From an uncultured bacterium (GTDB lineage: Bacteria > Planctomycetota > UBA1135 > GCA-002686595), in NCBI GenBank assembly GCA_943787795.1, contig CALSNU010000003.1, positions 224,001-288,000 of the forward strand: a stretch of DNA of 64,000 bases, read 5' to 3'. Each line of letters begins with the position of its first letter. The first letter of the stretch is position 1. The position numbers and the translations under genes were made by a program. Of this stretch, positions 17,382 to 49,939 are shown one piece after another. Below the pieces are notes generated by a model that was given only the letters and a program-made list of their open reading frames with translations, did not search any database and was not told where the DNA came from.

Positions 17382-17726
17382 ACTCGGCGCGGAGAGTCGG
17401 CGCTTCGCTTTCCGTTCCAGCGATGCTCGATCGAGACCGAAGGCGGACACCGTCGTCGCAGATGTCTCTGGATGACACAGCGGGGACTGTCTCGCGTAAA
17501 GAAGACCCTCGCATGGATGGGATGAACGAGGTAGCGTCAATTGGGCAGGAGTTCGGAACCCGTCATCCGGCGGATCCGTCCTTCCATCCATCGACTGTTC
17601 CTTCCTCATGAAGCGCCGCTGCTGCTTGGCCATTGTGCCGGGCTTGTCAGCACCGTCACTCGGGTGGGACTCGTCCTTCTGCACAGTCCCACTTCTTCTC
17701 ACTCTTCCTTCTGGAGATTCATCCTG

Positions 17727-29564: not shown

Positions 29565-30785
29565 TCAGCCCGCGTGGACGCGCACGTGCTCGCCGATCCA
29601 GTCCTGAATCGTGCGCAGCTCGTCAAAGTTAGGGTGGCGCAGCCGGACCCACGCGTTCGCCATGTAGCCGGCCTCGACGCCCTGGGTCGCGGTCCCCGGC
29701 GGAGGGAAGTGGGAGTCGATGATGTGCTCGCCGTAGCGAGCCTTGAGGTCCTCGACGCCCTCGTAGCCCTCGATGCGGCCGTCGGCGCTGGGGCGCAGGG
29801 CGATCATGCCGCCGGCGCAGCGCCTCGAGGGCGACTGGGAGGGGCTCCCCTGAACGATGAGGTGAGCCCACTCACGGTAGATGTCGAAGTCGTTGGCGGC
29901 TTGGTAGACGTCCCACATGCGCACGCCCGGGGGGCGGCAGCCGATCTCGCTGAACTTGAGGCCCTTGGGCCCGAAGAACCACTCCATGTGGGTGGCCGAG
30001 GTCTCGATACCGAGGGTCTGGATCACCTTGCGCCCCATCTCGCGGAGGTCGTCGTAGCGCTCGTCCTGGACCTCGTTGGTGGTGGCCATCTGGGGCGAGA
30101 TCCAGCGGTGACGCATGGCCTCGAGGACATTCGGGTAGTAGTGGGTGATGAACTCGTGGGCCACGTCACCGTTGAGGCTCAGGGTGTCCCAGTAGCCCTC
30201 GTGCCCCTCAATGAACTCCTCGATGGCGACGCTCTCGCCCCGCCCCAGGCCGCTCTCCTGGATCGCCGCTTCGAGGCTCTCGTCGTCGTGCGCGCGGGCG
30301 GTGCCGGCGGCGCCCGCGCCGTCCCTCGGCTTGAGGATGACGGGGTACCCGACCCGCTCGATGAAGGCCCGGGCCTCGTCGAGATCGGAGGTCCCGATGC
30401 TCTGGGCAGTGGGGACGCCGGCCTCACGCAGCGCGTCCTTCATGGCGGGCTTGTCCCGGCAGAGCCATGCGGTGCGGGTCGAGGTGCCCGGGATTTCGCA
30501 CTGCTCGCGGACCCAGGCGCAGGGGGTGATGTGCGCCTCGACCGTGGCCTCCAACCGATCCACCCAGGTGCGCTCCTGGACCCGTCGGACGGCCGCGAGG
30601 AGCGCCTCACCGTTCGTCACAGAGGGCACCTGCTCATGCCCGTCGAGCCACCCTCGCATCTCGTTATCGAGGGCGCTGGGCGGCGCCTCCGCGATGGCGG
30701 TGACCCGTGCGCCGACCTCCTTCAAGGCGCGGACGAACTCTCTCTGATTGGAGGGGAAGGAGGGCTCGACGAAGATGACGTGCAT
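29565..30785 (-). CDS. ATP-grasp ligase (paralog 1)
   Basis: RDKPAMK, KPRDGAGA, EEFIEGHE, THMEWF, SEIGCRPPG; start 30785 or 30797. Confidence 0.9.
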   Translation of the reverse strand: MHVIFVEPSFPSNQREFVRALKEVGARVTAIAEAPPSALDNEMRGWLDGHEQVPSVTNGEALLAAVRRVQERTWVDRLEATVEAHITPCAWVREQCEIPGTSTRTAWLCRDKPAMKDALREAGVPTAQSIGTSDLDEARAFIERVGYPVILKPRDGAGAAGTARAHDDESLEAAIQESGLGRGESVAIEEFIEGHEGYWDTLSLNGDVAHEFITHYYPNVLEAMRHRWISPQMATTNEVQDERYDDLREMGRKVIQTLGIETSATHMEWFFGPKGLKFSEIGCRPPGVRMWDVYQAANDFDIYREWAHLIVQGSPSQSPSRRCAGGMIALRPSADGRIEGYEGVEDLKARYGEHIIDSHFPPPGTATQGVEAGYMANAWVRLRHPNFDELRTIQDWIGEHVRVHAG

Positions 30786-30882
30786 GGCTTGGGGCAAGCG
30801 TGGGGGCGCGGGGGACCCGGGTGCCAGTGGGTCGTCGGTTGGGTGGCTATCGTGCAGGCGCCGAGCGGAGCCGGCGACGGGC

Positions 30883-32364
30883 TCAGGCCAGCTGGAGGTC
30901 GGCCATGATCGCGGCGTAGAGATCCTCGTAGCGGTCGACCTGGGCCTCCCATGAGAAGTCCCTGGCCATGCCGCGGAGCTGCATTTGTCGCCAGCCCTCG
31001 GTGTCCCGCCAGACCTCGATGGCGTGGGCCAGGGTGTCCTCGAGGGCCACGGAGGTGTGCTCGTAGAACATGAAGCCCGTGCCGCTGCCGTCCTCGTGGC
31101 GCTCGACGGTGTCCGCGAGCCCGCCGGTGCTCCGCACGAGCGGGATGGTGCCGTACCTGAGGCTGTACATCTGATTCAGACCGCACGGCTCATAGCGTGA
31201 GGGCATGAGGAAGATGTCGGAGCCTGCCTCGATTCGGTGGGCGAGCCCGTTGTCGTAGCCGATGTGCACACCGACCTTGGCGGGGTAGCGGTCGCGGAGC
31301 CAGCGGAAGTAGCTCTCCTGCTCCGGGTCGCCGCTGCCCAGGACGACCAGTCGCACGTCGTGGTGATCGAGGAGTCGCTCGGCGAAGTCGGGGATCAGCT
31401 CGAAGCCCTTCTGGTGCGTCAGCCTGGAGACAATGCCGAGGACCGGCCCGGACGGCTCGGGGGCCACGCCGAGCTCGTCGAGGAGCGCGTCCCGGCACAT
31501 GCGCTTCCCGAACAGATCCTCTGGGCCGTAGTTGGCGGGCAGGTGCCTGTCGGTCGCGGGGTCCCACTCTCCGTAGTCGACACCGTTGACGATGCCCGCC
31601 AGGTGATCCTCCCGCTGAGCCAGGAGGCCCTGAAGGCCGTGGCCGTACTCGGGGGTCTGGATCTCGCGGGCGTAGGTGTCCGAGACCGTGGAGAGCCACG
31701 AGGCGTGAAGGATGCCCGTCTCCAGGTAGTTGACCGCGCCAGCGGCGAGGCGCTCCTGGTGGAACTGGTCGCGGACGCCACCCAGGCCGACCCGGCGAAT
31801 AGCGTCCTCGGAGAACACGCCCTGGTAGCCCAGGTTGTGGATAGAGAGCAGCGTGGAGCTCCCGCGCAGGAGCTCGTCCCAGGCGTAGGTGGACTTCAGC
31901 AGCAGCGGCAGGAGCCCCGTGTGCCAGTCGTTGGCGTGGAACACGTCAGGGGCCCAGCCGGTGCGCTGGCAGGCCTCGATGGCGGCCCGGCAGAAGGCCG
32001 CCCAGCGGATCGGCTCGTCGTCATCGTTGGTGTAGAACTCCTCCCGTCCGAAGAGCTCGGGTGAGTGGATGAACTCCACTTGGAGCGGGACGCCCTCGTC
32101 GTTCTCGGAGTCCGGCAGCGGCGCCTTGCGGACGGAGACCGGGACGTCCCACCCGGGGAAGCTCAGGGGGAAGGGCGAGAGGAAGGGCTCCGTCTCGAGC
32201 CCCGACCGTTCGACCCGCCCGTAGAGGGGGACGAACAGCCTGACCTCATGGCCACGCTTCCAGAGGGTTCGGGAGAGCGCCGCGGCCACGTCGGCGAGGC
32301 CGCCCGTCTTGGCGAACGGAGCGCACTCCGCGGACACCATCGCGATGCGAAGGGGCAGCTGCAT
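30883..32364 (-). CDS. glgA: Glycogen synthase (GT5)
   Basis: KTGGLADV, HANDWHT, IHNLGYQG, GIVNGVD, MPSRYEPCGLNQ, TGGLADTV. Confidence 0.95.
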   Translation of the reverse strand: MQLPLRIAMVSAECAPFAKTGGLADVAAALSRTLWKRGHEVRLFVPLYGRVERSGLETEPFLSPFPLSFPGWDVPVSVRKAPLPDSENDEGVPLQVEFIHSPELFGREEFYTNDDDEPIRWAAFCRAAIEACQRTGWAPDVFHANDWHTGLLPLLLKSTYAWDELLRGSSTLLSIHNLGYQGVFSEDAIRRVGLGGVRDQFHQERLAAGAVNYLETGILHASWLSTVSDTYAREIQTPEYGHGLQGLLAQREDHLAGIVNGVDYGEWDPATDRHLPANYGPEDLFGKRMCRDALLDELGVAPEPSGPVLGIVSRLTHQKGFELIPDFAERLLDHHDVRLVVLGSGDPEQESYFRWLRDRYPAKVGVHIGYDNGLAHRIEAGSDIFLMPSRYEPCGLNQMYSLRYGTIPLVRSTGGLADTVERHEDGSGTGFMFYEHTSVALEDTLAHAIEVWRDTEGWRQMQLRGMARDFSWEAQVDRYEDLYAAIMADLQLA

Positions 32365-32458
32365 GGCGGGAGCTTAGCGAACGGCGGGGGCCGGGTTGGG
32401 CACGGCGAGGAGTTCTGGTGGGAATCCAGGCCCCGTTGGTGGGTATCCTCCGGTTCAG

Positions 32459-33700
32459 ATGTCACGCGCCAACACCGTCTTCGTCGCGCCCTTCGCCCTC
32501 CCCAGCACGCTGAGGTTCCTGAGGGCGGCGGCCCTGCTCCCCGAGACCACCTTCTCGGTGGTGGCGCAGGAGCCGGCGGCGTCGTTCATGGCCGCGCTGG
32601 ACGAGGAGGTGCGGGGTAGGATCGCCGAATTCGTGTCCGTGGCCGACTGCCACGACCCGGACCAACTCGAGGGAGCCGTCCGTCGAGTCGCCGGAAGCAC
32701 GGGCGCCGGGGTCACGGCTCTGGTGGGCATCCTCGAGCCACTCCAGGAGGCGCTCGCATGCGTGCGGGAGCGACTCCAGATCCGCGGGATGGACCGCGCC
32801 GAGGCGGGGCGCTTCAGGGACAAGGCGGTCATGAAGGACGCGCTCCGCGCCCATGACCTGCCCTGCGCCGGTCACCACCTGGCGACGGACGCGGCGAGCG
32901 CCCTGAGCTTCGCGCGCCGCACCATGCCCCTCGTGGCCAAGCCCCCCGCTGGTGCCGGGGCCCGGGATACCTTCCGGGTGGATGAGGTCTCGCAGCTGGA
33001 GAGCTGGATGGCTTCGAATCCGCCGACTCCCGCGCGGCCGCTGCTGCTCGAGGAGTTCGTCCAGGGGCGGGAGTACTCCTTCGACAGCGTGTCGATCGGA
33101 GGTCGTCACCTCTTCCATTCGATCTCCGAGTACTCGCCCACGCCGCTGCAGGTCATGGAGTCGCCCTGGATCCAGTGGACGGTCATGCTGCCCCGGGATG
33201 TCGGTGGCCCGGAATATGCGCCGATCCTCTCGGCCGGTCCGCGTGCGCTGGATGCCCTGGGGATGGTCAGCGGGATGACCCACATGGAGTGGTTCCGCCG
33301 CGCCGATGGGTCCATCGCGATCTCGGAGGTCGCCGCGCGGCCGCCCGGGGCGCAGTTCACCTCCTTGATCTCCTACGCCCACGACCGCGACTTCTATCGG
33401 GTCTGGGCCGAGGTCTCGATCCTCGAGGAATTCTCGGTCCCGCCGCGCAAGTACGCGACCGGCGCCGCGTACCTGCGCGGTCAGGGCGGCGGCCGAGTGG
33501 CGCGCGTGGCCGGGATCGAGCGGGCCAACGAGGAGCTCGGTGACCTCGTCGTCGAGTCCCAGCTTCCGGTTCCGGGCCAGCTCAAGGCGAGCTCCTACGA
33601 GGGCGAGGGCTTCATCATCCTCCGCCATGAGGACACCGACCGCGTGCGGGAAGGGCTTCGGCGCGCCGTCGAGATCCTCCAGGTCGAGCTGTCCTCCTGA
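32459..33700 (+). CDS. ATP-grasp ligase (paralog 2)
   Basis: RDKAVMK, KPPAGAGA, EEFVQGRE, THMEWF, SEVAARPPG. Confidence 0.9.
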   Translation: MSRANTVFVAPFALPSTLRFLRAAALLPETTFSVVAQEPAASFMAALDEEVRGRIAEFVSVADCHDPDQLEGAVRRVAGSTGAGVTALVGILEPLQEALACVRERLQIRGMDRAEAGRFRDKAVMKDALRAHDLPCAGHHLATDAASALSFARRTMPLVAKPPAGAGARDTFRVDEVSQLESWMASNPPTPARPLLLEEFVQGREYSFDSVSIGGRHLFHSISEYSPTPLQVMESPWIQWTVMLPRDVGGPEYAPILSAGPRALDALGMVSGMTHMEWFRRADGSIAISEVAARPPGAQFTSLISYAHDRDFYRVWAEVSILEEFSVPPRKYATGAAYLRGQGGGRVARVAGIERANEELGDLVVESQLPVPGQLKASSYEGEGFIILRHEDTDRVREGLRRAVEILQVELSS

Positions 33701-33752
33701 GCCGCGTCCGCCCTCCTCTTCCACCGACCCCACTCCACCCCTAAGGCTCCCC

Positions 33753-34994
33753 ATGACGATCAACGTCGTCCTCATTTCCCCGGGCTTCCCCGCCGACAAC
33801 GGTCACTTCACGCAGGCGCTGCACGCGCTGCCCGGCGTGCGAGTCCTGGGGGTCGGAGACCAGCCCATCGCGGCCATGGAGCCCGCGGTCCGGGCTGCCA
33901 TCGACGACCATCTCGTGGTGAAGGACCTCTGGAGCGAGGAGCAGACCGTGGCCGAGGTGGGCCGCTGGCTCGGACAGCTCGGGGTGCGGCCCGATCGGGT
34001 CGAGTGCCTGTGGGAGATCGGCGTGGTGCTGGCGGCGCGCATGCGTGAGGCCTTCGATGTCCCTGGCTTGCGCGTGGACCAGGCCGTGACCTTCCGTGAC
34101 AAGGAGGTGATGAAGGCAACCCTCGACGCCGCGGGGGTCCGCACGCCGCACCACTACCGCGCCCGAACCCGCGCGGAGGTGGAGGAGGCCGCCCGCGCCG
34201 TGGGGTACCCGCTGATCGTCAAGCCCATCGACGGCGCAGGCTCCGAGGACACCCACACGGCCCGCTCTGACGAGGAGCTCTCCCAGGTCATCGAGGCCGT
34301 GGCTCACGTCCCCGAGGTCAGCGTGGAGGAGTTCATCGAGGGCAAGGAGTTCACCTATGACGCGATCCTCGCCGACGGGGAGACCCTGTTCGAGAACGTG
34401 GCCTGGTATCGGCCCAAGCCGCTCGTCGCGCGCCAGAATCCGTGGATGAGCCCCCAGGCGGTGTGTCTCGCGGACCTGGAGCAGCCCGACGTCGCGCCGG
34501 GCGTGGAGCTGGGCCGCCGCGCCCTGAAGGCGCTTGGCTACCGCACCGGGATGGCCCACATGGAGTGGTACCTCTCGGACAAGACCGGGGAGGCCATCTT
34601 CGGAGAGGTCGGCGCCCGCGCCCCTGGGGGGCGGCTCTCCCACGGCATGAACTACGCGTGCGATGGCGACGTGTTCCAGCTCTGGGCGGAGGCGATCACC
34701 CGCGGCTCGTCGGAGCAGTCCATGGAGCGCCGGTACAACGCGGCGCTGGTCTTCAAGCGCGCCCACGGCGACGGGCAGCTCGTGACGCGGATCGAGGGGC
34801 TGGAGCCGATCCTCGCGCGCGACGGGGAGCACCTCCCCGTGGTCGAGCTGGTTCCCATCGGGGCGCCGCGGCGAGACTGGACCCAGGTGGTGACCGGTGA
34901 TGGGTGGTGCATCGCCCGGCATAACCTGCTGGGTGAGGCGCTCCGCATCGCGGACGACATCGGTCGGGACGTGAGGATCCACTGCGACGCCTGA
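33753..34994 (+). CDS. ATP-grasp ligase (paralog 3)
   Basis: RDKEVMK, KPIDGAGS, EEFIEGKE, AHMEWY, GEVGARAPG. Confidence 0.9.
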   Translation: MTINVVLISPGFPADNGHFTQALHALPGVRVLGVGDQPIAAMEPAVRAAIDDHLVVKDLWSEEQTVAEVGRWLGQLGVRPDRVECLWEIGVVLAARMREAFDVPGLRVDQAVTFRDKEVMKATLDAAGVRTPHHYRARTRAEVEEAARAVGYPLIVKPIDGAGSEDTHTARSDEELSQVIEAVAHVPEVSVEEFIEGKEFTYDAILADGETLFENVAWYRPKPLVARQNPWMSPQAVCLADLEQPDVAPGVELGRRALKALGYRTGMAHMEWYLSDKTGEAIFGEVGARAPGGRLSHGMNYACDGDVFQLWAEAITRGSSEQSMERRYNAALVFKRAHGDGQLVTRIEGLEPILARDGEHLPVVELVPIGAPRRDWTQVVTGDGWCIARHNLLGEALRIADDIGRDVRIHCDA

Positions 34995-35947
34995 TGGCCG
35001 CTGACTCCCGACCACTCGCTCTGCTGGGGCCCCAGCATGAGAGGCCGACCCTGCGCGATGTCCTCGACGGCATGGGCGCTGGGGGTCCTTATGTCCTCGT
35101 CTCCGCAGGTTGGCAGGAGCGCGAGTCCGAGACCGGGCGCCTCGACGCTCACCTCGGTGAGGCCGTACGCACCCTCGACCTCTGGCCGCGCTGCGAGGCT
35201 GCGTTCGAGGCGGACGCCGATCTTCGGCACATGATGTTCGATCGGCACGACCGAATGAATGAGCTGTCTGCGCTGTACCGCGTGCGGCTGGCGGCGGAGC
35301 TCGCTGCTGCCCGGGACCTGATGGGGCGCACGCGCCCGGATCGAGCAGACCCCCTCGTGGGCCCGTCGCTGGACCTCGCCTGCGGTGCCCTGCGAGACCT
35401 CGATGACCTCCACTGCTCGCGGGTGGGCGAGCTCAATGAGGAGGTCTTCGGCCAGGCCATCGAGCGGGAGAGTCTCCGCGCCGGCCGGGCGGAGATCGCG
35501 GAGGCGCTCGCTGGGGCAGGGACGCTGCTGGTGGCGGGGGGGCACGTCGGCATCCTCTACAACCGGATGCGCCTGTTCGGGGTGCGTGAGATGCTCCCCG
35601 CCGCGACCCCCGTGGTCGGCTGGTCGGCCGGCGCGATGGTGCTGACTGACCGCATCCTGCTCTTCCACGACTCGCCCCCCCAGGGCCCGGGCGACGCCGA
35701 GTTCCTGGGCCCCGGGTTCGGACTCGCTCCCGGCGTGGTCGTGCTGCCCCACGCCTCCCGGCGGCTTGACCTCGAGCACCGCGGCCGGGTCGCGCTCCTC
35801 GCCCGGCGGCTGGCTCCGGAGCTCGTGGTCGCCCTCGATGACGGCGATCGCCTCGAGGCTGGCGCGGAAGGCTGGTCCGGCGTGGGGGCGCGCCGACTGA
35901 CCCACGCCGGCGCGGTCGACGAAGAGCTCATGGGGGCCGGCGCGTGA
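34994..35947 (+). CDS. Peptidase S51 / class I glutamine-amidotransferase-like protein (cyanophycinase/PepE fold)
   Basis: VAGGH, nucleophile elbow GWSAGAM, downstream VLPH; TGATG overlap. Confidence 0.75.
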   Translation: MAADSRPLALLGPQHERPTLRDVLDGMGAGGPYVLVSAGWQERESETGRLDAHLGEAVRTLDLWPRCEAAFEADADLRHMMFDRHDRMNELSALYRVRLAAELAAARDLMGRTRPDRADPLVGPSLDLACGALRDLDDLHCSRVGELNEEVFGQAIERESLRAGRAEIAEALAGAGTLLVAGGHVGILYNRMRLFGVREMLPAATPVVGWSAGAMVLTDRILLFHDSPPQGPGDAEFLGPGFGLAPGVVVLPHASRRLDLEHRGRVALLARRLAPELVVALDDGDRLEAGAEGWSGVGARRLTHAGAVDEELMGAGA

Positions 35948-37074
35948 CGTCGCTCAGCAGCATCGAGGCGGTGAAGGACGCCATCGGCGAATCCGGGGCC
36001 GCTGCCCTGGAGGGGCTTGAGGTACCGATCGTCGAGGGCGGCCGCGCGCTCTTCGTCTATGAAGGCCGCGCGGAGGGCGTCTGGCTCCACCACTGGATCT
36101 TCGGGCTCGAGTCGGCCCAGGAGTTCCTTCGGACGCACCCCGACGTCTGGACGCTCGAGCTCGAGGTGCAGGCCACGGCCCGGGTCGAATACAAGCTGGA
36201 GATCCAGGACAATGGCGAGCGCAAGCTCATCCTGGACGCGCTGAACCCCGCCGTCGCGCGGGACCCGTTCGCCACCAACTCGGTGGTGACGGGCCCGGAC
36301 TACACGACCCCTTGGTGGGCGGTGGAGGATCGCTCGCGCCGTCAGGGGGTGATCCTTGAGCGGCAGCTTCAAAGCGAGGTCTTCGGCGACGTGCGCCCGC
36401 TCTCGATCTACCTCCCGCCTCGCTACCGGGTGACGCGCCGCTACCCGCTCCTCGTGGTGCACGATGGGCTCGACTATCTGCGGTATGCGGCCTTCAAGAC
36501 GGTGATCGACAACCTCATCGACCTCGGGGAGATCCCCCCGATGGTCGTGTGCTTCATTCAGTCGCCGGATCGGGTCCATGAGTACGCGGCGAGCGAACAG
36601 CACGCCGACTTCCTCGCGACCGAGCTGCTGCCGCTGCTCGAGGACGAGTTCTCGCTGGAGGCTGGCCCCGACAACCGCGCCTTGATGGGGGCCAGCTTCG
36701 GCGGCGTTGCGTCGCTCCACGCGTCGCTCCAGCACCCCGGTGTGTTCGGCCGCCTCTTCCTTCAGTCGGGCTCATTCGCGTTCACCGACATCGGTGACCA
36801 CGAGCGCGGCCCGCTCTTTGACCCGGTGGTGGCCTTCGTGAACGGGTACCGCCGCGCGCCGCAGAAGCCGGCCGACAGGGTCTTCCTGTCCTGCGGGATC
36901 TACGAGTCTCTCATCGTCTACAACCGCTCCCTGCTTCCGATGCTCCAGTCTGTCGGGGTCGACGCTACCCTCGTGGAGGCGCAGGACGGTCACAACTGGG
37001 AGAACTGGCGGGACCACCTCCGCGCCGGGCTCACCTGGCTCTTCCCCGGACCTCTCTGGATGGTGTACGAGTGA
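35944..37074 (+). CDS. Fes-like alpha/beta esterase with N-terminal E-set/CBM48-like domain
   Basis: WTLEL..RVEYKL..DALNP, IYLPP, HDG, GASFGG, DGHNW; GTGA overlap. Confidence 0.82.
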   Translation: MTSLSSIEAVKDAIGESGAAALEGLEVPIVEGGRALFVYEGRAEGVWLHHWIFGLESAQEFLRTHPDVWTLELEVQATARVEYKLEIQDNGERKLILDALNPAVARDPFATNSVVTGPDYTTPWWAVEDRSRRQGVILERQLQSEVFGDVRPLSIYLPPRYRVTRRYPLLVVHDGLDYLRYAAFKTVIDNLIDLGEIPPMVVCFIQSPDRVHEYAASEQHADFLATELLPLLEDEFSLEAGPDNRALMGASFGGVASLHASLQHPGVFGRLFLQSGSFAFTDIGDHERGPLFDPVVAFVNGYRRAPQKPADRVFLSCGIYESLIVYNRSLLPMLQSVGVDATLVEAQDGHNWENWRDHLRAGLTWLFPGPLWMVYE

Positions 37075-37080
37075 AACGAC

Positions 37081-38349
37081 ATGGCTGACATCAAACGAAT
37101 CGGGCTCTCCCTCGGCGCTGACATCTGCTGGCCGCGCTGCTTTGAGGGCATCCTCGAGCGGTGGGACCCCACCCTCAAGGTGGCGGGGCGTGACGTGCGC
37201 TTCGAGGTGGATCGAGTGGTCATCGAGCCCTTCGATCTGCGGACGCCGACGCGCTACAACGTCGTCCTCGACCGCCTCACCCACTGGTACGCGAACACCC
37301 GCGAGTGGATCAAGAAGGGTGTGCTGATGGACGACCTCTACGTCCTCAACAACCCCTGGTCGGTGCAGTCCATGGAGAAGCAGACCTCGTACTGCGCCAT
37401 GATGCGGCTGGGCATGCCAATCCCGGATACGTGGCTGGTGCCGCCGAAGGAGTATGAGTCCAGCCCGGACCTGCAGCCGACGCTCGAGCGCTATGCCCGT
37501 TACTTCGACCTCGAGGAGCTCGGGGAGAAGGTGGGCTACCCACACTTCATGAAGCCTTATGACGGCGGCGGCTGGGTCGGCGTCAACAAGATCGACAGCG
37601 TCGAGGAGCTCAAGACGGCCTACGACGAGAGCGGCAAGTTCGTCATGCACCTGCAGCACGGGGTGCTGCCCCACGATCACTTCGTCCGCTGCGTTGGGAT
37701 CGGTCCCGACATCCGGATGGTGGAGTACGACCCTTCGGCGCCCCTGCATGAGCGCTACACCAAGGAGTACAACCACCTCTCGCCGGCGGAGATGGAGCAC
37801 CTGCGCCAGATCACCCTGACGATCAACGCCTTCTTCGGCTGGGACTTCAACTCCTGCGAGAGCCTCCGACAGGACGGCGTCTGGCACCCGATCGACTTCG
37901 CGAACCCCTGCCCTGACTCGCAGGTGACCTCGTTGCATCAGCACTTCCCGTGGCTGGTGCTCGGCAAGCTGCGGTGGGCGCTCTTCGTCGCGGCCACCGG
38001 CCGCAAGTTCAAGAACAACCTCGACTGGGACCCGTACTTCGAGATCGCCGACGGGCCGGGCTCGTTTGCAGAGAAGCTCCCTCAGTACGCGGCGATCGCC
38101 GACGAACACTTCGAGACCGCGCGCTTCCAGGAGTTCTGCGCCGAGCACCTCGGCCCCCTGGATGAGGTGGCGTGGGAGTTCTTCGGCACCGCGGCGGCGA
38201 GAGACGCGGTGCACGAGAAGGTGGCCGCGCTCTTCCCCGAGCACGAGGTGGAGGAGTTCACCGAGCGCTTCTGGGGGTCGATCCAGAGCTGGCGGCACGA
38301 GACCGCTCACGCGTCGCCGAGCGACAGCATCCACGGAGTGCCGTCATGA
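37081..38349 (+). CDS. ATP-grasp ligase, RimK-like (paralog 4)
   Basis: VLNNPW..MEK, IPDTWLVP, MKPYDGGGWVGV, NSCE, IDFANPCPD. Confidence 0.82.
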   Translation: MADIKRIGLSLGADICWPRCFEGILERWDPTLKVAGRDVRFEVDRVVIEPFDLRTPTRYNVVLDRLTHWYANTREWIKKGVLMDDLYVLNNPWSVQSMEKQTSYCAMMRLGMPIPDTWLVPPKEYESSPDLQPTLERYARYFDLEELGEKVGYPHFMKPYDGGGWVGVNKIDSVEELKTAYDESGKFVMHLQHGVLPHDHFVRCVGIGPDIRMVEYDPSAPLHERYTKEYNHLSPAEMEHLRQITLTINAFFGWDFNSCESLRQDGVWHPIDFANPCPDSQVTSLHQHFPWLVLGKLRWALFVAATGRKFKNNLDWDPYFEIADGPGSFAEKLPQYAAIADEHFETARFQEFCAEHLGPLDEVAWEFFGTAAARDAVHEKVAALFPEHEVEEFTERFWGSIQSWRHETAHASPSDSIHGVPS

Positions 38350-39095
38350 CGCGTATCGCCGAGACCTGGACGTCCGAGCGCGTGGGGCGTGAGGTGAAGG
38401 TGGTCCGTTGGGGTGAGATGGGGACGCCCGTGGTCTTCTTCCCAACGGCCGCGGGGGACGCCGAGGAGTGCGAGCGGTTCCTGCTCGTGGACGCCCTCGC
38501 GCCGCTCCTGGAGGAGGGCATCATCAAGCTCTACTCGGTGGACTCGGTGCCAGGCATGGTCTGGTTGAAGGAGGACAACTCCGTGCCCGGCGCGTCCCGC
38601 GCCCAGGCGGGGTTCGACGCGTTCGTCGAGCACGAGCTTGTGCCCATGATCCGCCGGGACTGCAACGTCGCGGAAGGCGAGCCCCTGGACATCATCGCGT
38701 CGGGGGCGTCCATCGGTGCGTACAACGCCCTGGCCGCGATCTGCCGTCACCCGGAGCTGTTCTCGGAGGCGATCTGCATGTCCGGGACGTACGAGCTGTC
38801 CAAGTTCATCGACGGCGACATGGACGAGGCGTGGTACTTCGCGTCGCCCCTGCACTTCATCCCGAACCTGCCCGAGGATCATCCCAACCTCGCCCGCCTT
38901 CGAGAGCGCCGGATCCTCATCAGCCACGGCGCTGGCCGCTGGGAGGACCCCGAGGAGTCCTGGGCCGTCGCTCGCGTGCTGGGCGCCAGGGGGATCCCGA
39001 ACCACGTGGACGAGTGGGGCGAGGACTGGGACCACGACTGGCCGACGTGGCGCCGGATGCTGCCGGAGTATCTCAGGGCGCGCCTCGTCGACTGA
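38346..39095 (+). CDS. Small alpha/beta-hydrolase (esterase family)
   Basis: WGEMGTPVVFFPT, GASIGA, MSGTYE, WDHDWPTW; ATGA overlap. Confidence 0.85.
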   Translation: MTRIAETWTSERVGREVKVVRWGEMGTPVVFFPTAAGDAEECERFLLVDALAPLLEEGIIKLYSVDSVPGMVWLKEDNSVPGASRAQAGFDAFVEHELVPMIRRDCNVAEGEPLDIIASGASIGAYNALAAICRHPELFSEAICMSGTYELSKFIDGDMDEAWYFASPLHFIPNLPEDHPNLARLRERRILISHGAGRWEDPEESWAVARVLGARGIPNHVDEWGEDWDHDWPTWRRMLPEYLRARLVD

Positions 39096-39419: not shown

Positions 39420-41807
39420 ATGATCCTCACAGCCTCGCGCGTCGCTCTGCTCGCCCTCGCCGTCCTCTCACCCGCGGCTCTGGGCCAGGTGGAGGCGCCG
39501 TCCTTCGACAACGTCCCCTTCGTCCACGACACAGGGTGGGTGTCCCCGGCCGCTGCGACGGGCAGCGACCTCGAGCTCTGCGCGAGCTTCGCCGTGGACC
39601 AGGAGGGCGCGGAGTGGATCCGGCTCTACTTCGAGGATGTCGTGCTCGCCGGGGATCTGCTCGCGGGCACCGGCGCCGAGCTCCGCATCACCTCGATGCT
39701 GGACGGAGGCCTTCAGGTCATGAACGCCATCGAGGTGGAGCGCTGGGACCGCTCGACCGCGTACTTCAATGGAGACGCCCTGGTGGTCGAGGTCTGGGCG
39801 CGGCCTGGAACCGGCACGAGCCGCGTGCAGCTCCGGGCCATGGATATGGGGACGCCTCCGCTCCTTGGGACGGCCTCCATCTGCGGCCCGAACGACGACC
39901 GCCTGCCGTCGACCGACGCGCGCTCGGGGCGGTTGCTCCCGGTGGGCTGCACGGGGTGGCTGATCCAGGACTGCGCGGGCTGCTTCCTGACGGCGGGGCA
40001 CTGCACCGGCAACCTCCAGGTGATTCAGTTCAACGTGCCCCCCTCGTCCAGCTCCGGCTCCATCCAGAACCCGCCGCCCTCGGACCAGTACCCGGTGGAC
40101 GGCGCGTCGCTCCAGTCCAACGGTGGGCAGGGCGTGGGGGACGACTGGGCCTACTTCGGCGCCTTTCCGAACGGCACCTCGGGGCTGACCGTGACCCAGG
40201 CCCAGGGCCCCGGCTTCCAGCTCTCCGCCCCGCCGCAGCCGGGCGGCGCCGACATCCGGATCACGGGCTTCGGGACGGATAGCTCTCCGCCTGAGCGCAA
40301 TCAGACCCAGCAGACCCACCTCGGACCGCTGGTCACCAACTCCGGAACGACGGTGCAGTACCAAACGGACACCACCGGCGGGAACTCCGGTTCGCCGGTG
40401 ATCTGGGCCCAGACGGACCAGGCGGTGGGCATCCACACCCACGGCGGGTGCAGCTCCTCCGGCGGCCAGAACTCGGGCACGAGCTTCTCGCACCCCGATC
40501 TTCAGAGCGCGCTGGCGAGCCCTCAGGGCATCTGCGGCGCGAGCCTCGCCGCGCCCGGCGCGCCGACCCTCTTGCCGCCGCTTCAGGCGGTCGCGGTCTC
40601 CGCGCTGGTGCTCGGGCCGGTGGTCCCCGGCAGCGTGACGCTCCACGAGCGCACGAGCCTGGCCGGGATGTTCCAGTCCATCGCCATGGTGGACATGGGC
40701 GGTGGGGTCTTCACGGCTCAGCTGCCGGCCTACGTCTGCGGCGATGTGCCGGAGTACTTCTTCAGCGCCCAATCGGTGTCTTGTGGCCAGGTCTTCGCGC
40801 CCGCAGGCGGCGCTTCAGACCCGTTCACCGCCGCAGTGGGGGTGGTCAACACGAGCTTCGCCGACGACTTCGAGGTCCCCCTGGGCTGGCAGACGGCCTC
40901 CACCGCCACGACCGGAGACTGGCAGCGCGGGGTCCCGGTGAACGACCCCTCGTGGGCTTTCGACCCGTCCTCCGACGGTGATGGCAGCGGGAGCTGCTTC
41001 GTCACCCAGAACACAGCCGGCAACTCGGATGTGGACAACGGCGAGGTCCGGCTCACCTCGCCCCCGCTCACCGTCGTGGGCGCGGCGAGCGAGTTGACTT
41101 ACCTCTACTACCTCGAGCTGAGCAACCAGAACGCTGAGGACGAGCTGGCCGTCGCCGTGAGCCCGGACGGCGGCGTGAACTGGTCCACGCTCCGACGGCA
41201 CCGCTCCTCGACCGGCGGAGGGTGGGTTCCGGACACCCTCACCGCGGCGGAGCTCGCCGGCGCAGGGGTCGTGGCTGGCTCGACCATGCTCGTGCGATTC
41301 ACCGCGAACGACGCGAACGCTCAGTCCATCGTCGAGGCGGGCGTGGACGGGGTCCAGGTCGGGACCGTGGACTGCGATCCGACCGTGATCGGCGTCGCCG
41401 AGTGCGCCCCGGCGGTCGCCAACTCTACCGGGGCCCCTGGAACGCTCCGGGCCGTGGGCTCCAGCGCCGTGGCGGATAACGACGTGCAGCTCATCGCCGA
41501 GTCGCTCCCTGTGAACACCCTCGGGTACTTCTTGGTGTCGACGGATGCCGGGCTGATCGTCAGCCCGGGCGGGAGCTCAGGGACCCTCTGTCTCGGCGGC
41601 TCGATTGGCCGCTACGCAGGCGATGTCCTGAGCTCGGGGCCCGCCGGAGAGTTCCTCTTCCAGCTGGACCTCTCCGCGCTGCCGCAGCCCACGGGCGCCG
41701 TGGGGGCTGTGGCCGGTGACACGTTCCGGTTCCAGGCCTGGTTCCGCGACTTCTCGATCTTCAACACCTCCAACTTCACCCACTCCCTGGCGATCAGCTT
41801 CGACTGA
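39420..41807 (+). CDS. Secreted trypsin-like (S1) serine protease with accessory beta domains and conserved C-terminal domain
   Basis: Signal peptide; triad motifs TAGHC, DDWAY, TGGNSGSP; middle DDFE..GW..GDWQRG module. Confidence 0.88.
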   Translation: MILTASRVALLALAVLSPAALGQVEAPSFDNVPFVHDTGWVSPAAATGSDLELCASFAVDQEGAEWIRLYFEDVVLAGDLLAGTGAELRITSMLDGGLQVMNAIEVERWDRSTAYFNGDALVVEVWARPGTGTSRVQLRAMDMGTPPLLGTASICGPNDDRLPSTDARSGRLLPVGCTGWLIQDCAGCFLTAGHCTGNLQVIQFNVPPSSSSGSIQNPPPSDQYPVDGASLQSNGGQGVGDDWAYFGAFPNGTSGLTVTQAQGPGFQLSAPPQPGGADIRITGFGTDSSPPERNQTQQTHLGPLVTNSGTTVQYQTDTTGGNSGSPVIWAQTDQAVGIHTHGGCSSSGGQNSGTSFSHPDLQSALASPQGICGASLAAPGAPTLLPPLQAVAVSALVLGPVVPGSVTLHERTSLAGMFQSIAMVDMGGGVFTAQLPAYVCGDVPEYFFSAQSVSCGQVFAPAGGASDPFTAAVGVVNTSFADDFEVPLGWQTASTATTGDWQRGVPVNDPSWAFDPSSDGDGSGSCFVTQNTAGNSDVDNGEVRLTSPPLTVVGAASELTYLYYLELSNQNAEDELAVAVSPDGGVNWSTLRRHRSSTGGGWVPDTLTAAELAGAGVVAGSTMLVRFTANDANAQSIVEAGVDGVQVGTVDCDPTVIGVAECAPAVANSTGAPGTLRAVGSSAVADNDVQLIAESLPVNTLGYFLVSTDAGLIVSPGGSSGTLCLGGSIGRYAGDVLSSGPAGEFLFQLDLSALPQPTGAVGAVAGDTFRFQAWFRDFSIFNTSNFTHSLAISFD

Positions 41808-45065: not shown

Positions 45066-46418
45066 TTAGACGTTGACGAAGTCCGCGTCACTGGGGAGGT
45101 CGTGGTCGTCGGCTCTTCGATTGCGCTTGAAGTCATATCCGCGGGGGACACAGACGATCCCGGAGTCGGTGACCGTGAAGCGCTTACGGTCCTCGTCCAG
45201 GTCAACGCCGATCTCTGCGCCCGAGGGGACGGTGGTCCACTTGTCGATGATCGCCCGGCGGATGATGGCGCCAGGCTCTACGACGACGCCGTGCATCAGG
45301 ATGCTCTCCTCGATGTCCGCGTCCTCGCCTGAGCAGACGCGGTTCCCCATGATGGAGCGCCGCACCCGTGACCCGGAGATGATGGATCCATTACAGAGCA
45401 GGGAGTCCACGATCTGCGCGTGGTGCCCCTCTGGCTCCGAGAAGATCGTCTTGGCCGGCGGGTCGTTGTGCCAGAGCGTATAGATGGGCCAGTGCTTGTC
45501 GTACAGGTTGATCGAAGGCACCACCTGGCAGAGGTCCAGGTTGGCGTCGAAGTACGCGTCGAGCGTGCCCACGTCTCGCCAGTAAGGGGTGTTGCCCTTG
45601 GGGTCTTCCGACCTGGGGCCGCCTGCATTCTCTGCGCCGCTTGCGCCGCCGGCGGCGTCCACGTCACGGAAGGAGTGGGCGATGACCGTGGTGCCGTCCT
45701 CGACCATCGCAGGGAGCACGTCCTGGCCGAAGTCGTGGCTCGTCCCGGAGGTCTTGGCCATGTCCTCGCGGAGGCGCCGGATGAGCTCCTGCCGTTCGAA
45801 GATGTAGATCCCCATGGACCCCAGGCAGCGACCGGGCTTGCCCGGGATCTCCGTGCCGACCTCCGGCTTCTCCTGGAAGCCCGTCACCTGCGACCGGCCA
45901 TCGACCTCGAGGACGCCGAAGCGCGGCGCGTCCTCCGCGCCGATCTCCACGGCGCCGATGGTGCACTTGGCGCCGGCCTCGACGTGCTCCTCCAGCATGT
46001 CGCCGTAGTCCATCTTGTAGATGTGGTCGCCCGAGAGGATCACCACGTGATCACACTCGACCTGCTGGAGTAGCTCGAGGTTCTGGGCGATCGCGTCGGC
46101 GGTTCCCCGGTACCAGCTTCCCTGTCCGCCGTGTTGGGGGGGGCGCGGGACGATGAACTGGGAGAGACGACGGGGTAGGAAGTTCCAAGCGAGGCGCAGG
46201 TGCTCTTCCAGCGAATACGCCTGGTACTGCGTCAGCACGAAGACGCGCCGGAGTCCGGAGTGGATGACGTTCGATAGGGTGAAGTCGATGATCCGATAGG
46301 CCCCGCCGAAGGGCACTGCCGGCTTGGCGCGGCCGATCGTGAGCGGCGAGAGGCGCTCTCCGCGCCCTCCCGCGAGGACGAAGGTCAGCGTCGACTTGAG
46401 GAGCTGTGCGCGATTCAT
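45066..46418 (-). CDS. glgC: Glucose-1-phosphate adenylyltransferase
   Basis: VLAGGRGERL, RAKPAVPFGG, WYRGTADA, SGDHIYKMDY, FQEKP, YWRDVGT. Confidence 0.97.
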   Translation of the reverse strand: MNRAQLLKSTLTFVLAGGRGERLSPLTIGRAKPAVPFGGAYRIIDFTLSNVIHSGLRRVFVLTQYQAYSLEEHLRLAWNFLPRRLSQFIVPRPPQHGGQGSWYRGTADAIAQNLELLQQVECDHVVILSGDHIYKMDYGDMLEEHVEAGAKCTIGAVEIGAEDAPRFGVLEVDGRSQVTGFQEKPEVGTEIPGKPGRCLGSMGIYIFERQELIRRLREDMAKTSGTSHDFGQDVLPAMVEDGTTVIAHSFRDVDAAGGASGAENAGGPRSEDPKGNTPYWRDVGTLDAYFDANLDLCQVVPSINLYDKHWPIYTLWHNDPPAKTIFSEPEGHHAQIVDSLLCNGSIISGSRVRRSIMGNRVCSGEDADIEESILMHGVVVEPGAIIRRAIIDKWTTVPSGAEIGVDLDEDRKRFTVTDSGIVCVPRGYDFKRNRRADDHDLPSDADFVNV

Positions 46419-46601
46419 GGGGGTGCGAGGGCCGGGGGCTCGGAATCCGCCTTGATCAGAACAGACTGGGAGCCCGGATAACAGATGACCCAGGGAGATC
46501 CTCCGCGACTCGACCTTTGATCTGGATCGCGCAGGTAGCTACCTTCCCAGGTGAAGGCGCTGTGCCAGAGCGCACGACCCGGGCCCACGGCTCCACCCCG
46601 A

Positions 46602-48599
46602 ATGTCTGCCCCTCTTCTGCGTCGACTTCAACAGCCCAGGGAACTCCACTCGGAGCCCCTTGGTGGCCGCCGCTGGTGCTCCACCGCGACCGACGCCCGC
46701 GACATCGCGTCCACGGGCCCGCACCTCATCGGGCTCCCCGAGCGGGTCCTCTGGTCCTCTGGGCGCCGCGCGGCTGACGGGCTCCTCGTGGCGGAGCGTC
46801 TCGACGACGGGCTGCTGGTGGCCGAGACCGCCGACCTGCCGGGCGAGCCGATCGTGTGGCTGGGTGACCTGGCCGTGACCCTGGGCGAAGATCCTGAGGT
46901 TGGAGATCCGGAGCCGAGCGCCCTGGCTTCGGCGCCTGTCGGGCTCGGAGCACCCAGGATCCGCCTCGGCACCCTCACGCCTCGGGTCGAGGCGGTCTGG
47001 TCCGTCAACGAGTCGCTGGCGCGGGTTGAGTGCACGCTGCCCTGCCGCCCGGTCGGCCAACGCACCCACCAGAACGATGCGCTCGATCCCCGAGTGCAGT
47101 TGGAGGCCACCGAGTCGGGGGCGGTCGCGCGCGTACGCCCCTATCCCGGGATGCCGGCGATCATCCTTCGCTTCAACGGCGACGTCACCCTTGTGGGGGC
47201 CGCGCTCTGGCATTCGGACGTCGCGGTCCTCGACCGCACGGGGCCCATCGGCGTCGAGGATCGATTCTCGCCGGGAGTGTTCCTGGTTCGTCTGCCCGAG
47301 ACCGCCACGAGCCTGCGGGTGACGGTTGAGGTCGAGGCGGACCTGGTCCGCGCCGGCGACCGGCGCGCTGGAGTCGACGCCGAGCCCGCCGCCGAGCCTG
47401 ACGCTGAGCCTGACGCTGAGCCTGACGCCGAGCCTGACGCCGAGCCTGAAGCTGGGCCGGGAGTTGGGCCCCTGTCGGCCGCCGTCACGGCGCGCGGACG
47501 GCTCATGGACATCCTCTCTGCCCCGGGGCTCGCGCTCGAGGCGGGCTGGAGCCCCGATCAGATCTCCAGCTGGATCAAGCACCATGTGGCCGCCGCCGTG
47601 ACCGCCATCGGGGGCCCCGGTGAGGTCGCCGGGGATGACTCCGCCCTGTGGCTGGGGCGTACGTGCCAGCTGCTCCTACGTAACCTCCGATCGGCCTGGG
47701 GCCCGCTGACTTATCGGGGGCTCGTGGAGGACTGCTTTGCTCCGGCGGTCGCCTCGATGGTCGACGCGATCCTCGCCGAGGCACCCGGTGCCGCGTCAGC
47801 CTCGGAGCTGAGCGACGGCGCGGTGGGGGAGAGCCCTCCCACCGATGGGGTCGCCGGGTTCGCTGGAGCAGGCCCGGGTGAGGAGACGAGCCCCGGGGCC
47901 GCGCGGTTCCGGGGGACCCGTCGCTGGTACGAGGTGCTCGCCTCCACCCCGTCCGTCCCGCGCGGAGCGGTGTGCGTGGAGGCCGGCGCGCTCCTGCACC
48001 AGCTGTTCATCTTTGATGAGCAGCTTTGCCGGATGACATCGAACGGGCCGCGGCGCGAGCAAGCTGCGCGCCGCGCGCTGGACGCCCGCCGCTGGTTTCA
48101 GCGGGCCTTCTGGCTCTCGACGCCGCGGCGGCTCGCGGACCTCGAGGTGAGCGGGTCGGACCCCGTTGGCGGGACGGCCCTGTCCATGCGGGCCGGGATG
48201 CTCGTGGCGGCTGCCCTCGAGGGGGCGCCCCTGGATCAGATGCAGCGCCGCGCCGTGGTGAACGCGGCGGATGAGCGCCTGCTGACGCCCCTTGGGGTGC
48301 GGTCCATCGATCGAGCGGACCTTGGGTTTCACCAGGATTCGCCGGTGGACGGCGCGGTCTGGCCGTGGCTCCTCGGGATGCACGTCGAGGCGGCGATCAG
48401 GGCGTTCGGGCGAGACTTCGTCCGCCTCGACTTCGAGGAGAGCCTGCTGGCGGCCATCGATGGCGCGCCTGAAGCCTGGGCCGAACGCTCGGAAGGCGGC
48501 GTGTCGCCGATCGGAGACTTGACCTTCCCCCCTGCCAGCGGCGAGTCCATTCGAGCGTTCCGCCTCCTGACCGAGGTCCTGGGCGGAACACCGGAGTGA
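46602..48599 (+). CDS. Degenerate glycogen debranching enzyme / amylo-alpha-1,6-glucosidase homolog
   Basis: Remnant motifs DSALW, PRGAVCVEAGAL, LLTPLGVRSI, GAVWPWLLG; precedes GT4 and GH57; start uncertain. Confidence 0.65.
   Translation: MSAPLLRRLQQPRELHSEPLGGRRWCSTATDARDIASTGPHLIGLPERVLWSSGRRAADGLLVAERLDDGLLVAETADLPGEPIVWLGDLAVTLGEDPEVGDPEPSALASAPVGLGAPRIRLGTLTPRVEAVWSVNESLARVECTLPCRPVGQRTHQNDALDPRVQLEATESGAVARVRPYPGMPAIILRFNGDVTLVGAALWHSDVAVLDRTGPIGVEDRFSPGVFLVRLPETATSLRVTVEVEADLVRAGDRRAGVDAEPAAEPDAEPDAEPDAEPDAEPEAGPGVGPLSAAVTARGRLMDILSAPGLALEAGWSPDQISSWIKHHVAAAVTAIGGPGEVAGDDSALWLGRTCQLLLRNLRSAWGPLTYRGLVEDCFAPAVASMVDAILAEAPGAASASELSDGAVGESPPTDGVAGFAGAGPGEETSPGAARFRGTRRWYEVLASTPSVPRGAVCVEAGALLHQLFIFDEQLCRMTSNGPRREQAARRALDARRWFQRAFWLSTPRRLADLEVSGSDPVGGTALSMRAGMLVAAALEGAPLDQMQRRAVVNAADERLLTPLGVRSIDRADLGFHQDSPVDGAVWPWLLGMHVEAAIRAFGRDFVRLDFEESLLAAIDGAPEAWAERSEGGVSPIGDLTFPPASGESIRAFRLLTEVLGGTPE
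47376..47453 (+). repeat. In-frame 12-bp repeat encoding (DAEP)n, about 6 copies
   Basis: GACGCYGAGCCT units in an interdomain linker. Confidence 0.9.
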
Positions 48600-49939
48600 T
48601 GAAGGTACTGGTTCTTGGCTGGGAGTATCCCCCGGCCGTGGCGGGCGGACTGGGGGCGGCGTGCCACGGGCTCACCACCGCCCTCGCCGATCGCGGTCAC
48701 GAGGTGATCCTGTGCACGCCCGCGGACGGCGCTCCGGCAGACCCGGCGCCGTACCCCGGGATCGAGCGCGTGTCCCTCGGCGGTGACGCCTCGTTCTCCC
48801 CGTTTCACCCCGGGGCCGTGCTGGACCCTTATGCCGTGGATACGGCTCCCGGCTCGGCCAGCGCATCGGGGTCGCTCGTGCCACCCGTATCCTCTGGGGC
48901 GGCTGTCGCGGGGGCCGCGTCGGTGGAGGCTGGCTCAACGGGGCTCGGTTCATCCCGCCCTGACTCCCACGCGCAGAGCGCCCGCAAGCTGTACGGCGAG
49001 GACCTCTCGACGGCGATCCAGCGCTACTCCCGTGAGGCGGTGACCCGCCTCAAGGGTCGAGACTTCGACGTGGTCCATGCCCACGACTGGATGACGTTCC
49101 CCGCGGCGCTCCGCCTGCGCTTCGCGCGCCGACGACCCGTGTGCCTCCACGTGCACTCCACGGCGATCGACCGGGGCGGGGTATCCGCGCCGGGGCCGGT
49201 GGGGTCCATCAGCGCGGTGGAGCGCGCCGGGCTCCGCACGGCGGATCGGGTCTGCGCGGTCAGCGGCTTCACCAGGGATCTCCTTGTGCGTGAATATCGC
49301 CTCGACCCCGAGCGGGTCAGCGTCGTGCATAACGCGGCGCCTTCCGGCGTGGATTCGTCTCCCGAGAGGGTGGTCGGGCCGGAGGGCCCCACGGTCCTCT
49401 TCGTCGGGCGCTTGACCCGCCAGAAGGGCGTCGGCTTCCTGGTCCGAGCGGCGGCCCGGGTCCTGGAGTCCTGCCCGGCGGCGCGCTTTGTGTTCATGGG
49501 GGAGGGGGAGGATCGGACGCGGATGATCGAGATGGCTGCGGCCCTCGGGATCGGCCGGAGGGTCTTCTTTGCCGGTGGCGTGACCTCGGAGCTGCGCGAC
49601 CGCGCCTACGCCGAGGCCAGCGTCTTCGTGCTCTCCTCGGTCTCGGAGCCCTTCGGCCTGACGCCGCTTGAGGCCCTGCGCGGTGGCGCCGCTCCCGTCC
49701 TCACCGACGCCTGTGGCGTCCGCGAGGTCTTGCCCTCCGCCCCCGTGTGTCCCCCCTGGGATGCTGCCGGCCTGTCGGCCCAGATCGTCACCTTGCTCAC
49801 CGACGAGGCCCGACGCCTCGCGGTCGTTGAACAGGGCCGAGCAGAGCTCGAGCGCCTGACCTGGGCCGAGAGTGCCCGCCACCTAGAGGCTGCCCTGGAG
49901 AAGGCGCGGTCCACCTCCGGGAGGAGGACCACCGGATGA
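48596..49939 (+). CDS. GT4 glycosyltransferase
   Basis: LGWEYPPAVAGGLG, HAHDWMT, HVHST, FVGRLTRQKG, SVSEPFGLTPLEA. Confidence 0.92.
   Translation: MMKVLVLGWEYPPAVAGGLGAACHGLTTALADRGHEVILCTPADGAPADPAPYPGIERVSLGGDASFSPFHPGAVLDPYAVDTAPGSASASGSLVPPVSSGAAVAGAASVEAGSTGLGSSRPDSHAQSARKLYGEDLSTAIQRYSREAVTRLKGRDFDVVHAHDWMTFPAALRLRFARRRPVCLHVHSTAIDRGGVSAPGPVGSISAVERAGLRTADRVCAVSGFTRDLLVREYRLDPERVSVVHNAAPSGVDSSPERVVGPEGPTVLFVGRLTRQKGVGFLVRAAARVLESCPAARFVFMGEGEDRTRMIEMAAALGIGRRVFFAGGVTSELRDRAYAEASVFVLSSVSEPFGLTPLEALRGGAAPVLTDACGVREVLPSAPVCPPWDAAGLSAQIVTLLTDEARRLAVVEQGRAELERLTWAESARHLEAALEKARSTSGRRTTG

Follow-up and report, generated by a model that had tools for sequence, protein, structure and literature searches.

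The conserved cassette and its distribution

In a window of 64,000 nucleotides (the whole stretch of DNA analysed here), from a bacterial genome that is 85% complete and whose close homologs are labelled Planctomycetota, we examined a cassette in which four ATP-grasp ligases (AG1 to AG4), an S51-fold protein and two serine hydrolases (Est1 and Est2) surround a glycogen synthase (GlgA). These eight genes are one conserved enzyme set, frequently linked to alpha-glucan genes, and may serve to attach an amino-acid-based unit to alpha-glucan and to remove it again. They are:

29565-30785, minus strand: AG1, L-amino-acid-ligase-like ATP-grasp enzyme (Pfam ATP-grasp matches, family profile, invariant residues)
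30883-32364, minus strand: GlgA, GT5 glycogen synthase (TIGR02095, catalytic residues, cassette-associated clade)
32459-33700, plus strand: AG2, L-amino-acid-ligase-like ATP-grasp paralog (Pfam, invariant residues)
33753-34994, plus strand: AG3, L-amino-acid-ligase-like ATP-grasp paralog (Pfam, invariant residues)
34994-35947, plus strand: protein of the S51 fold, carrying a helical insertion; its catalytic set is degenerate (PF03575, predicted structure)
35944-37074, plus strand: Est1, serine esterase carrying an Ig-like domain at its N terminus, of Fes / CBM48-CE1 architecture (PF00756)
37081-38349, plus strand: AG4, RimK/LysX/Ddl-fold ATP-grasp enzyme with a helical C-terminal extension (predicted structure)
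38346-39095, plus strand: Est2, small serine hydrolase (PF00756)

All eight genes are intact, fit the codon model of the genome and lie where the first-pass annotation of this DNA had placed them, and the overlapping stop and start codons that it described are present at three junctions (1 base for AG3/S51, 4 bases each for S51/Est1 and AG4/Est2). The remaining spacings are 6 bases (Est1/AG4), 52 bases (AG2/AG3) and 94 bases in the divergent gap between glgA and AG2, and AG1 more likely starts at its ATG than at the TTG at 30797. Crude hydropathy, the sole check made, agrees with the earlier remark that none of the products has an obvious signal peptide. The guanine-cytosine content is 66-72% across the region, similar to the rest of the window, and a promoter and terminator scan gave a result at chance level. 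Four RNA runs of one study cover 26-30 of 30 bins at a low, even depth that includes the flanks; DNA carry-over is possible in these runs, which were not used further.

Homologous loci were retrieved by an AG4 scan of genome contigs, from which the best 80 of at least 602 confirmed places were taken, belonging to Myxococcota (27), Pseudomonadota (17), Acidobacteriota (13), Planctomycetota (11), Actinomycetota (4), Gemmatimonadota (4) and Eiseniibacteriota (3), with one unassigned. Genes were counted within 10 kb of AG4 (35 loci have full flanks), and the open reading frames (ORFs) of at least 120 amino acids in these neighbourhoods were clustered with a codon model. Est1 accompanies AG4 in 72 loci, Est2 and the S51 protein in 60 each, AG1 in 46, glgA in 34, AG2 and AG3 in 30 each and glgC in 7. 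The core S51-Est1-AG4-Est2 is kept in related loci of seven phyla, gene order and orientation vary, and AG1 lies directly next to glgA in 26 loci. With the same set of genes found again around AG4 in 80 loci, and in rearranged orders, the cassette is more than a chance arrangement. The initial list of eight genes stands; the system often also has a GCS2-CBS ligase (22 loci) and an AstE-type deacylase (12 loci). Genes for a synthase/phosphorylase (10), GlgB (9), GH77 (5) and GDE (4) recur as well. In the source genome the GCS2-CBS and AstE genes stand together on another contig, C5 (L102:7322-10502 (+)), and their products are 51% and 36% identical, respectively, to within-cassette copies elsewhere. 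No conserved small carrier gene was seen among the clustered ORFs of at least 120 amino acids, and no siderophore or xylan genes recur in the 80 loci. Homolog records include the cultured organisms Labilithrix luteola and Actinoplanes digitatis.

In addition, 121 evenly drawn Planctomycetota genomes were surveyed, of which 25 bear the cassette, taken as AG4 at E < 1e-100. AG1-3-type ligases are found in all 25 (three or more in 24), against only 1 of the 96 others. This sample shares at least two genomes with the 80-locus set, and kin in them are not independent. A shorter AG4 relative (about 310-370 amino acids) occurs in 11 genomes of the sample, and in L158, L160 and L161 it adjoins Est2, a GCS2-type ligase and an unclassified ligase-like gene.

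A much smaller arrangement was found on Peptoclostridium and Pararhizobium plasmids, where a distant ligase (24-29% identical to AG1-3) and an Est2 relative form a bare pair. Among 75 metagenome loci of the Peptoclostridium type, 45 of them of at least 9 kb, an Est2 relative is present in 61 and no further conserved neighbour stood out. Because the bare pair occurs on plasmids, and in these loci Est2 is the usual companion with glycogen genes in only one, the basic unit is the ligase plus Est2, and linkage to glycogen is a feature of the large version. In 22 of the 75 loci there is also a second gene, of roughly 250 amino acids, whose product is weakly Est1-like. A plasmid search with AG4 gave no match.

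Glycogen synthase and the alpha-glucan genes

The GlgA of the window reaches 515.6 bits with TIGR02095 (cut-off 328.45) and has the residues that we take to be catalytic, K19 of the KTGGL loop being present in 34 of 35 sequences and R314, K319 and E392 in all 35; from what is known of the family, it probably uses ADP-glucose. Of the 80 loci, 38 have an alpha-glucan gene of some kind; the 35 full-length ones account for 23 of these, and 22 of the 35 have glgA itself. The first-pass annotation had made its proposal depend on such linkage, and on the ligases not belonging to an already characterised pathway, and had called for a neighbourhood comparison across phyla. That comparison did not refute the proposal: co-occurrence with glg genes is frequent, not obligate, the GlgA clade is cassette-associated, and the ligases remain below the cut-offs of the named NCBIfam families listed.

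In the phylum sample, all 16 GlgAs of at least 430 bits are in the 25 cassette genomes, the best elsewhere reaching 412 bits, and a GlgA of at least 425 bits is present in 38 of the 50 cross-phylum genomes examined out of the 80. A quick first tree of 73 GlgAs, computed with no bootstrap, groups 49 of them with a support of 97 in the Shimodaira-Hasegawa-like approximate likelihood ratio test (SH-aLRT). For the second tree (92 rows, LG+G4, likewise quick and with no bootstrap; two long branches and one duplicate dropped), the 13 best-scoring GlgAs of cassette-free Planctomycetota were added as a control for similarity-based choice, and all 13 fall outside a clade of 53 rows (SH-aLRT 100). Of these 53 GlgAs, 42 are encoded beside a cassette and 11 elsewhere in cassette genomes. 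The clade has 14 diagnostic columns, such as E117, Q133 and W162-D163, which are mostly in the N-terminal domain. In many genomes, the source genome included, no canonical GT5 other than the clade GlgA was found, and many Myxococcota genomes have a second, ordinary GlgA. The other GT5-like gene of the source genome (G000:C1:616714-618150; L101:8679-10151 (-)) has neither the KTGGL loop nor the catalytic Glu motif, groups with a copy from G041 on a long branch, and is possibly a pseudo-synthase.

Cassettes that lack the clade GlgA are often linked to other glucan genes, namely another glgA and glgC in G107, glgC in G167, and GDE, synthase-phosphorylase, divergent GT5 and CBM48-GH13 genes in G109 and G153. 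Ten Planctomycetota cassette loci, mostly lacking the clade GlgA, have other glucan genes in five cases and none in view in five, one of which is a contig of 3.9 kb. Among distant short AG4 relatives, Est2 and glgB adjoin in 2 of 10 loci (L154, L156). A fusion of a GT3 glycogen synthase with a glycogen phosphorylase (about 1,400 amino acids) was observed beside several cassettes, e.g. L064:17013-21233 (+).

In the window, the linked glycogen genes form a block:

45066-46418, minus strand: GlgC, ADP-glucose pyrophosphorylase (TIGR02091, 429.1 bits, cut-off 424.9)
46551-48599, plus strand: divergent amylo-alpha-1,6-glucosidase-like gene (PF06202, E 1e-10)
48596-49939, plus strand: GT4 glycosyltransferase (profile match)
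49936-51120, plus strand: short GH57 protein of 394 amino acids, without the branching-enzyme C domain (PF03065, E 2e-59)

As had been noted, glgC and the GT4 and GH57 genes lie 6.0-12.0 kb from the cassette; the debranching-like gene between glgC and GT4 was overlooked at that time. Its product is 28% identical to a full-length GDE encoded beside another cassette, is much decayed compared with full-length GDEs, contains a short Ala-Glu-Pro-Asp repeat and may be inactive. The glycogen locus is interrupted by a gene for a trypsin-like product at 39420-41807 (+); this product and that of 17541-19106 (+) are probably secreted and, judged by eye, apparently have a C-terminal domain in common.

A search of the source genome, which is 85% complete, gave neither a GH13 nor a GH57 branching enzyme: the best GH13 match has 222 bits against a cut-off of 464 and is on a protein with a signal-like start, and PF09210 (BE_C), the domain that the short GH57 lacks, has no match. 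Phosphorylase and GH77 genes are present elsewhere in this genome. Of the 25 cassette Planctomycetota, 12 lack any known branching enzyme; GlgB is above cut-off in 10, PF09210 is found in 1 more, and the last 2 have a CBM48-GH13 protein that falls below cut-off and that we counted as a branching enzyme by inference. As a control, 60 of 63 GlgA-bearing genomes without a close AG4 have a branching enzyme (27 GlgB, 33 PF09210) and 3 have none. The short GH57 occurs in all 11 other branching-less cassette genomes, in 1 of 13 with a branching enzyme and in none of 23 cassette-free controls, a distribution drawn from four families only. Since it is nearly complementary to the known branching enzymes in the tested Planctomycetota, the short GH57 is a candidate substitute branching enzyme. 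Section 3.4.2 of the review PMC11046441 gives an amylase-like GH57 as the proposed missing branching enzyme for archaea and as an open question, to which this distribution brings bacterial support. Six non-planctomycete cassette genomes of unspecified completeness lack both known branching types and the short GH57 too. PDB sequence searches with the short GH57 and with the S51 protein gave nothing significant. We also considered that a decoration of glycogen replaces branching and rejected it as a general rule, because GlgB is above cut-off in 33 of the 50 cross-phylum AG4 genomes and because the Planctomycetota that lack a branching enzyme have the short GH57.

Ligases and hydrolases

The four ligases have 406-422 residues. 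The proposed paralogy of three of them is borne out, AG1-3 being 30-33% identical with all five motifs listed for them present. The best PDB match of the AG1 family profile is 4wd3 (E 7e-24), followed by BacD and 3vot. In AG1, HMEW, E284 and R288 are invariant in 45 of 45 rows; the corresponding residues are kept in 28 of 28 sequences for AG2 (H275, E277, E290, R294) and in 31 of 31 for AG3 (H269, E271, E285, R289). All three have the ATP-grasp fold with a metal-binding Glu pair and a carboxylate-binding Arg, and their His-x-Glu aligns to that of BacD. Among the NCBIfam families listed, none of AG1-3 reaches the cut-off of a named one (best 38-74 bits vs 302-850). They are L-amino-acid-ligase-like enzymes, which would join amino acids or related acids. 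An acyl-phosphate mechanism is described for L-amino acid ligases such as LdmS in the part of PMC9486568 considered here, and by family resemblance the cassette ligases presumably use the same chemistry. A search for long forms of AG1 gave eight single-member clusters, one of them a GlgA-AG1 fusion; seven contain truncated or mixed pieces, which may be frameshift artefacts, and the fusions were rejected as evidence. Predictions of a GlgA-AG1 complex scored 0.00 in both runs and were counted neither way.

AG4 is barely recognised by sequence (PF07478, 23 bits, cut-off 24), and TIGR00768 and TIGR02144 are absent from its 14 NCBIfam matches at E 0.01. Its predicted structure, with a predicted local distance difference test score (pLDDT) of 83, has ArgX/LysX, Ddl and RimK as structural matches (E 4e-10 to 1e-8); MdnC is also among the top matches, and the Ddl-type small-molecule ligases match equally well. 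AG4 proteins are 60-71% identical across seven phyla and keep E260, D272 and N275 in 71 of 71 sequences. In the family search 7,860 of 8,000 scored candidates passed, and clustering at 50% left 223 representatives at E 1e-30 or better. By these sequence criteria AG4 is a separate, very conserved family.

Est1, Est2 (both PF00756) and the S51 protein (PF03575) are all above the Pfam cut-offs. The Est1 triad is almost invariant (S251 68/68, E321 68/68, H350 67/68), and its hydropathy suggests a cytoplasmic protein. Its best PDB matches are Fes (E 5e-13) and then ferulic acid esterases (E 8e-11). The N-domain of 41 Est1 homologs gives weak matches throughout, to Enterochelin_N in 41 (best 5e-9), CBM20 in 20 (3e-4) and CBM48 in 5, and its best PDB match is a glucoamylase domain, also weak (E 0.013). 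In Est2 the triad is equally well kept (S122 60/60, E200 59/60, H230 59/60).

The modelled S51 protein (pLDDT 92.5) has the cyanophycinase/PepE fold with a helical insertion at residues 63-173. In structure comparison two relatives are tied, the pseudo-CphB 7uqv (Z 16.8, root-mean-square deviation 3.0, 205 residues aligned) and the cyanophycinase 3en0 (Z 16.4, 3.6, 209). Among 59 homologs, 50 have the catalytic Ser211 and only 35 have His253, placed by alignment to 6nqc (otherwise Gln, Asp, Glu and others), and the acidic position is variable; the window's own copy has both Ser211 and His253. Two other histidines are better conserved, H225 (57/59) and H184 (53/59), and His225 could replace His253. 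The S51 protein is therefore likely a pseudo-peptidase or a user of another histidine, and it is probably not the normal eraser for which it had been taken. Since both esterases keep Ser-His-Glu and the S51 His is often lost, the removing arm appears to be ester-directed rather than cyanophycin-like.

Interpretation and comparison with known systems

We give a probability of about 0.4 to the explanation that the ligases build an aminoacyl or peptidyl unit and the serine hydrolases transfer it onto, and remove it from, alpha-glucan. AG1-4 would build and activate the short unit, forming acyl-phosphates and joining amino acids or related acids. Est2 would be the acyl-transfer partner that puts the unit as an ester onto the glucan, Est1 would remove the ester-linked unit, the cassette-specific GlgA would make the acceptor chain, and the S51 protein may be a binding or scaffold subunit. 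GCS2-CBS and AstE could add an optional, regulated step of extra ligation and deacylation. The reasoning behind this proposal is that the hydrolases with intact sites are of the esterase type and that Est2 is the steady partner of the ligase, so that the linkage formed and cleaved is probably an ester; an ester needs a hydroxyl acceptor, for which alpha-glucan is the most economical candidate because GlgA travels with the cassette. The likeness of Est1 to esterases with an N-terminal Ig-like or CBM48 domain was counted in its favour. The write/erase system suggested by the first-pass annotation is thus partly supported: the linkage to glucan genes holds and is strengthened by the cassette GlgA clade, the S51 protein is probably not a normal eraser, and the chemistry is what we infer.

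Several observations weigh against this explanation. The Est1 N-domain scores best as Enterochelin_N, and Fes, the best solved relative of Est1, cleaves a non-sugar ester. Of the 53 clade GlgAs, 11 are encoded away from the cassette. No glucan gene is seen at the AG4 loci of G124, G198, G108 and G183, none of the four Actinomycetota loci has glgA, and glycogen genes are near the distant ligase-Est2 pair in 1 of 75 loci (1 of the 45 of at least 9 kb) and near neither of the two annotated plasmid pairs. Among the 25 cassette Planctomycetota, 9 have no GlgA of at least 430 bits (one has a partial linked copy) and 4 have none at E 1e-60. AG1-3 were not found in 7 of 19 AG4 genomes that were chosen for weak linkage and whose completeness is not known. 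The relatedness of the genomes and the quick, bootstrap-free trees count on this side too, as do the CE1-linked CBM48 domains reported, in the part of PMC8040265 considered here, not to bind starch. The Est1 N-domain does not decide the acceptor question.

A free peptide-like store is nearly as likely as glucan decoration. Here the ligases would make a free amino-acid-based reserve or stress compound (an oligopeptide, depsipeptide or polymer), to be recycled by the hydrolases, and the glycogen genes would only be co-regulated. This possibility gains from the closeness of AG1-3 to L-amino acid ligases, the frequent presence of the GCS2-CBS ligase and AstE-type deacylase, the S51 fold, and the minimal ligase-esterase pair that exists apart from glycogen genes. 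However, co-regulation by itself does not require GlgA to form a separate clade with conserved residues peculiar to it, the intact hydrolases are of the esterase type while the S51 His is degenerate, and no CphA-type synthetase was found, the best match having about 37 bits against cut-offs of 850-877.

It is considerably less probable that the product of the clade GlgA is a short glucoside or malto-oligosaccharide rather than bulk glycogen, which the cassette would leave alone while it acylates the short product to a small soluble compound serving as osmolyte or carrier. The acylated glucose oligomers of mycobacteria are a loose parallel, and the clade-specific changes in the GlgA N-terminal domain, the second, ordinary GlgA of many Myxococcota and the 12 cassette Planctomycetota with no known branching enzyme would fit. 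Yet the clade GlgA is the sole canonical GT5 found in many genomes, this one among them, its gene lies together with those for GlgC, GlgB, phosphorylase and debranching enzymes, and the short GH57 occurs where branching enzymes are missing. Least probable is a reversible protein modification that controls glycogen metabolism, with AG4 and the other ligases tagging a protein (for example a glycogen enzyme or the S51-fold subunit) and the hydrolases untagging it: ArgX, LysX, RimK and MdnC, top matches of the AG4 model, act on proteins or peptides, and the S51 protein combines a long helical insertion with a degenerate site, but Ddl-type ligases match AG4 equally well, AG1-3 resemble small-molecule ligases, and no conserved carrier gene was seen among the ORFs clustered.

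Bacterial glycogen is usually treated as a plain glucose polymer, and a ligase-esterase set with its own GlgA clade implies either covalent decoration of the polymer or a second store tied to it. In its fullest form, which is doubtful, the decoration proposal describes decorated glycogen in at least six phyla, with four or five ligases assembling a peptide, hydrolases linking and releasing it through an ester, and the short GH57 branching the polymer in several Planctomycetota families; peptide-decorated glycogen would, if this is true, be a joint carbon-nitrogen store. The system consists of eight to ten probably soluble enzymes, which makes it testable, and cultured hosts are known from the homolog records.

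The cassette is real, widespread and uncharacterised in the literature searched. No description of it was found there, although the 2009 survey of ATP-grasp neighbourhoods by Iyer et al. may mention it or a related cluster, and neither 'ATP-grasp' nor 'esterase' occurs in the part of the review PMC11046441 considered here. Every part has a known fold, and the combination matches no system found.

AG1-3 share fold family, length and the His-x-Glu/Glu/Arg positions with the L-amino acid ligases (4wd3, BacD 3vmm/3wnz, 3vot, LdmS), but are far below their cut-offs (38.9 bits vs 850 for the BacD model), and the cassette keeps three paralogs together with esterases and a glycogen synthase; their specificity is not readable from sequence. 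Cyanophycin metabolism relies on CphA, the S51 enzyme CphB and the AstE-type CphZ, and the cassette likewise combines ATP-grasp ligases, an S51 fold and often an AstE/AspA-type deacylase. In contrast, it has no CphA of ~870 residues (ATP-grasp plus Mur-ligase), its ligases having only about 400, and its S51 protein has the helical insertion and keeps the catalytic His in only 35 of 59 homologs. Cyanophycin metabolism is also not known to involve two esterases or GlgA.

The AG4 model resembles RimK, LysX, ArgX and Ddl, at the E-values given above and a template modelling score of about 0.65-0.7 over the target, whereas sequence identity is 11-18%, a C-terminal helical extension of about 110-130 residues is added and there is no NCBIfam RimK match. 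Est1 shares the Ig-like N-domain, the PF00756 domain and an intact triad with Fes and the CBM48-CE1 feruloyl esterases; it differs in its Fes score (98 bits vs a cut-off of 222), in a neighbourhood free of recurring siderophore or xylan genes and in its cytoplasmic-like hydropathy. Finally, the GlgA and GlgC of the window are above the cut-offs for the classical GlgC-GlgA-GlgB pathway, from which the system departs in the source genome, where no GH13 or GH57 branching enzyme was found and GlgA belongs to the cassette-associated clade.

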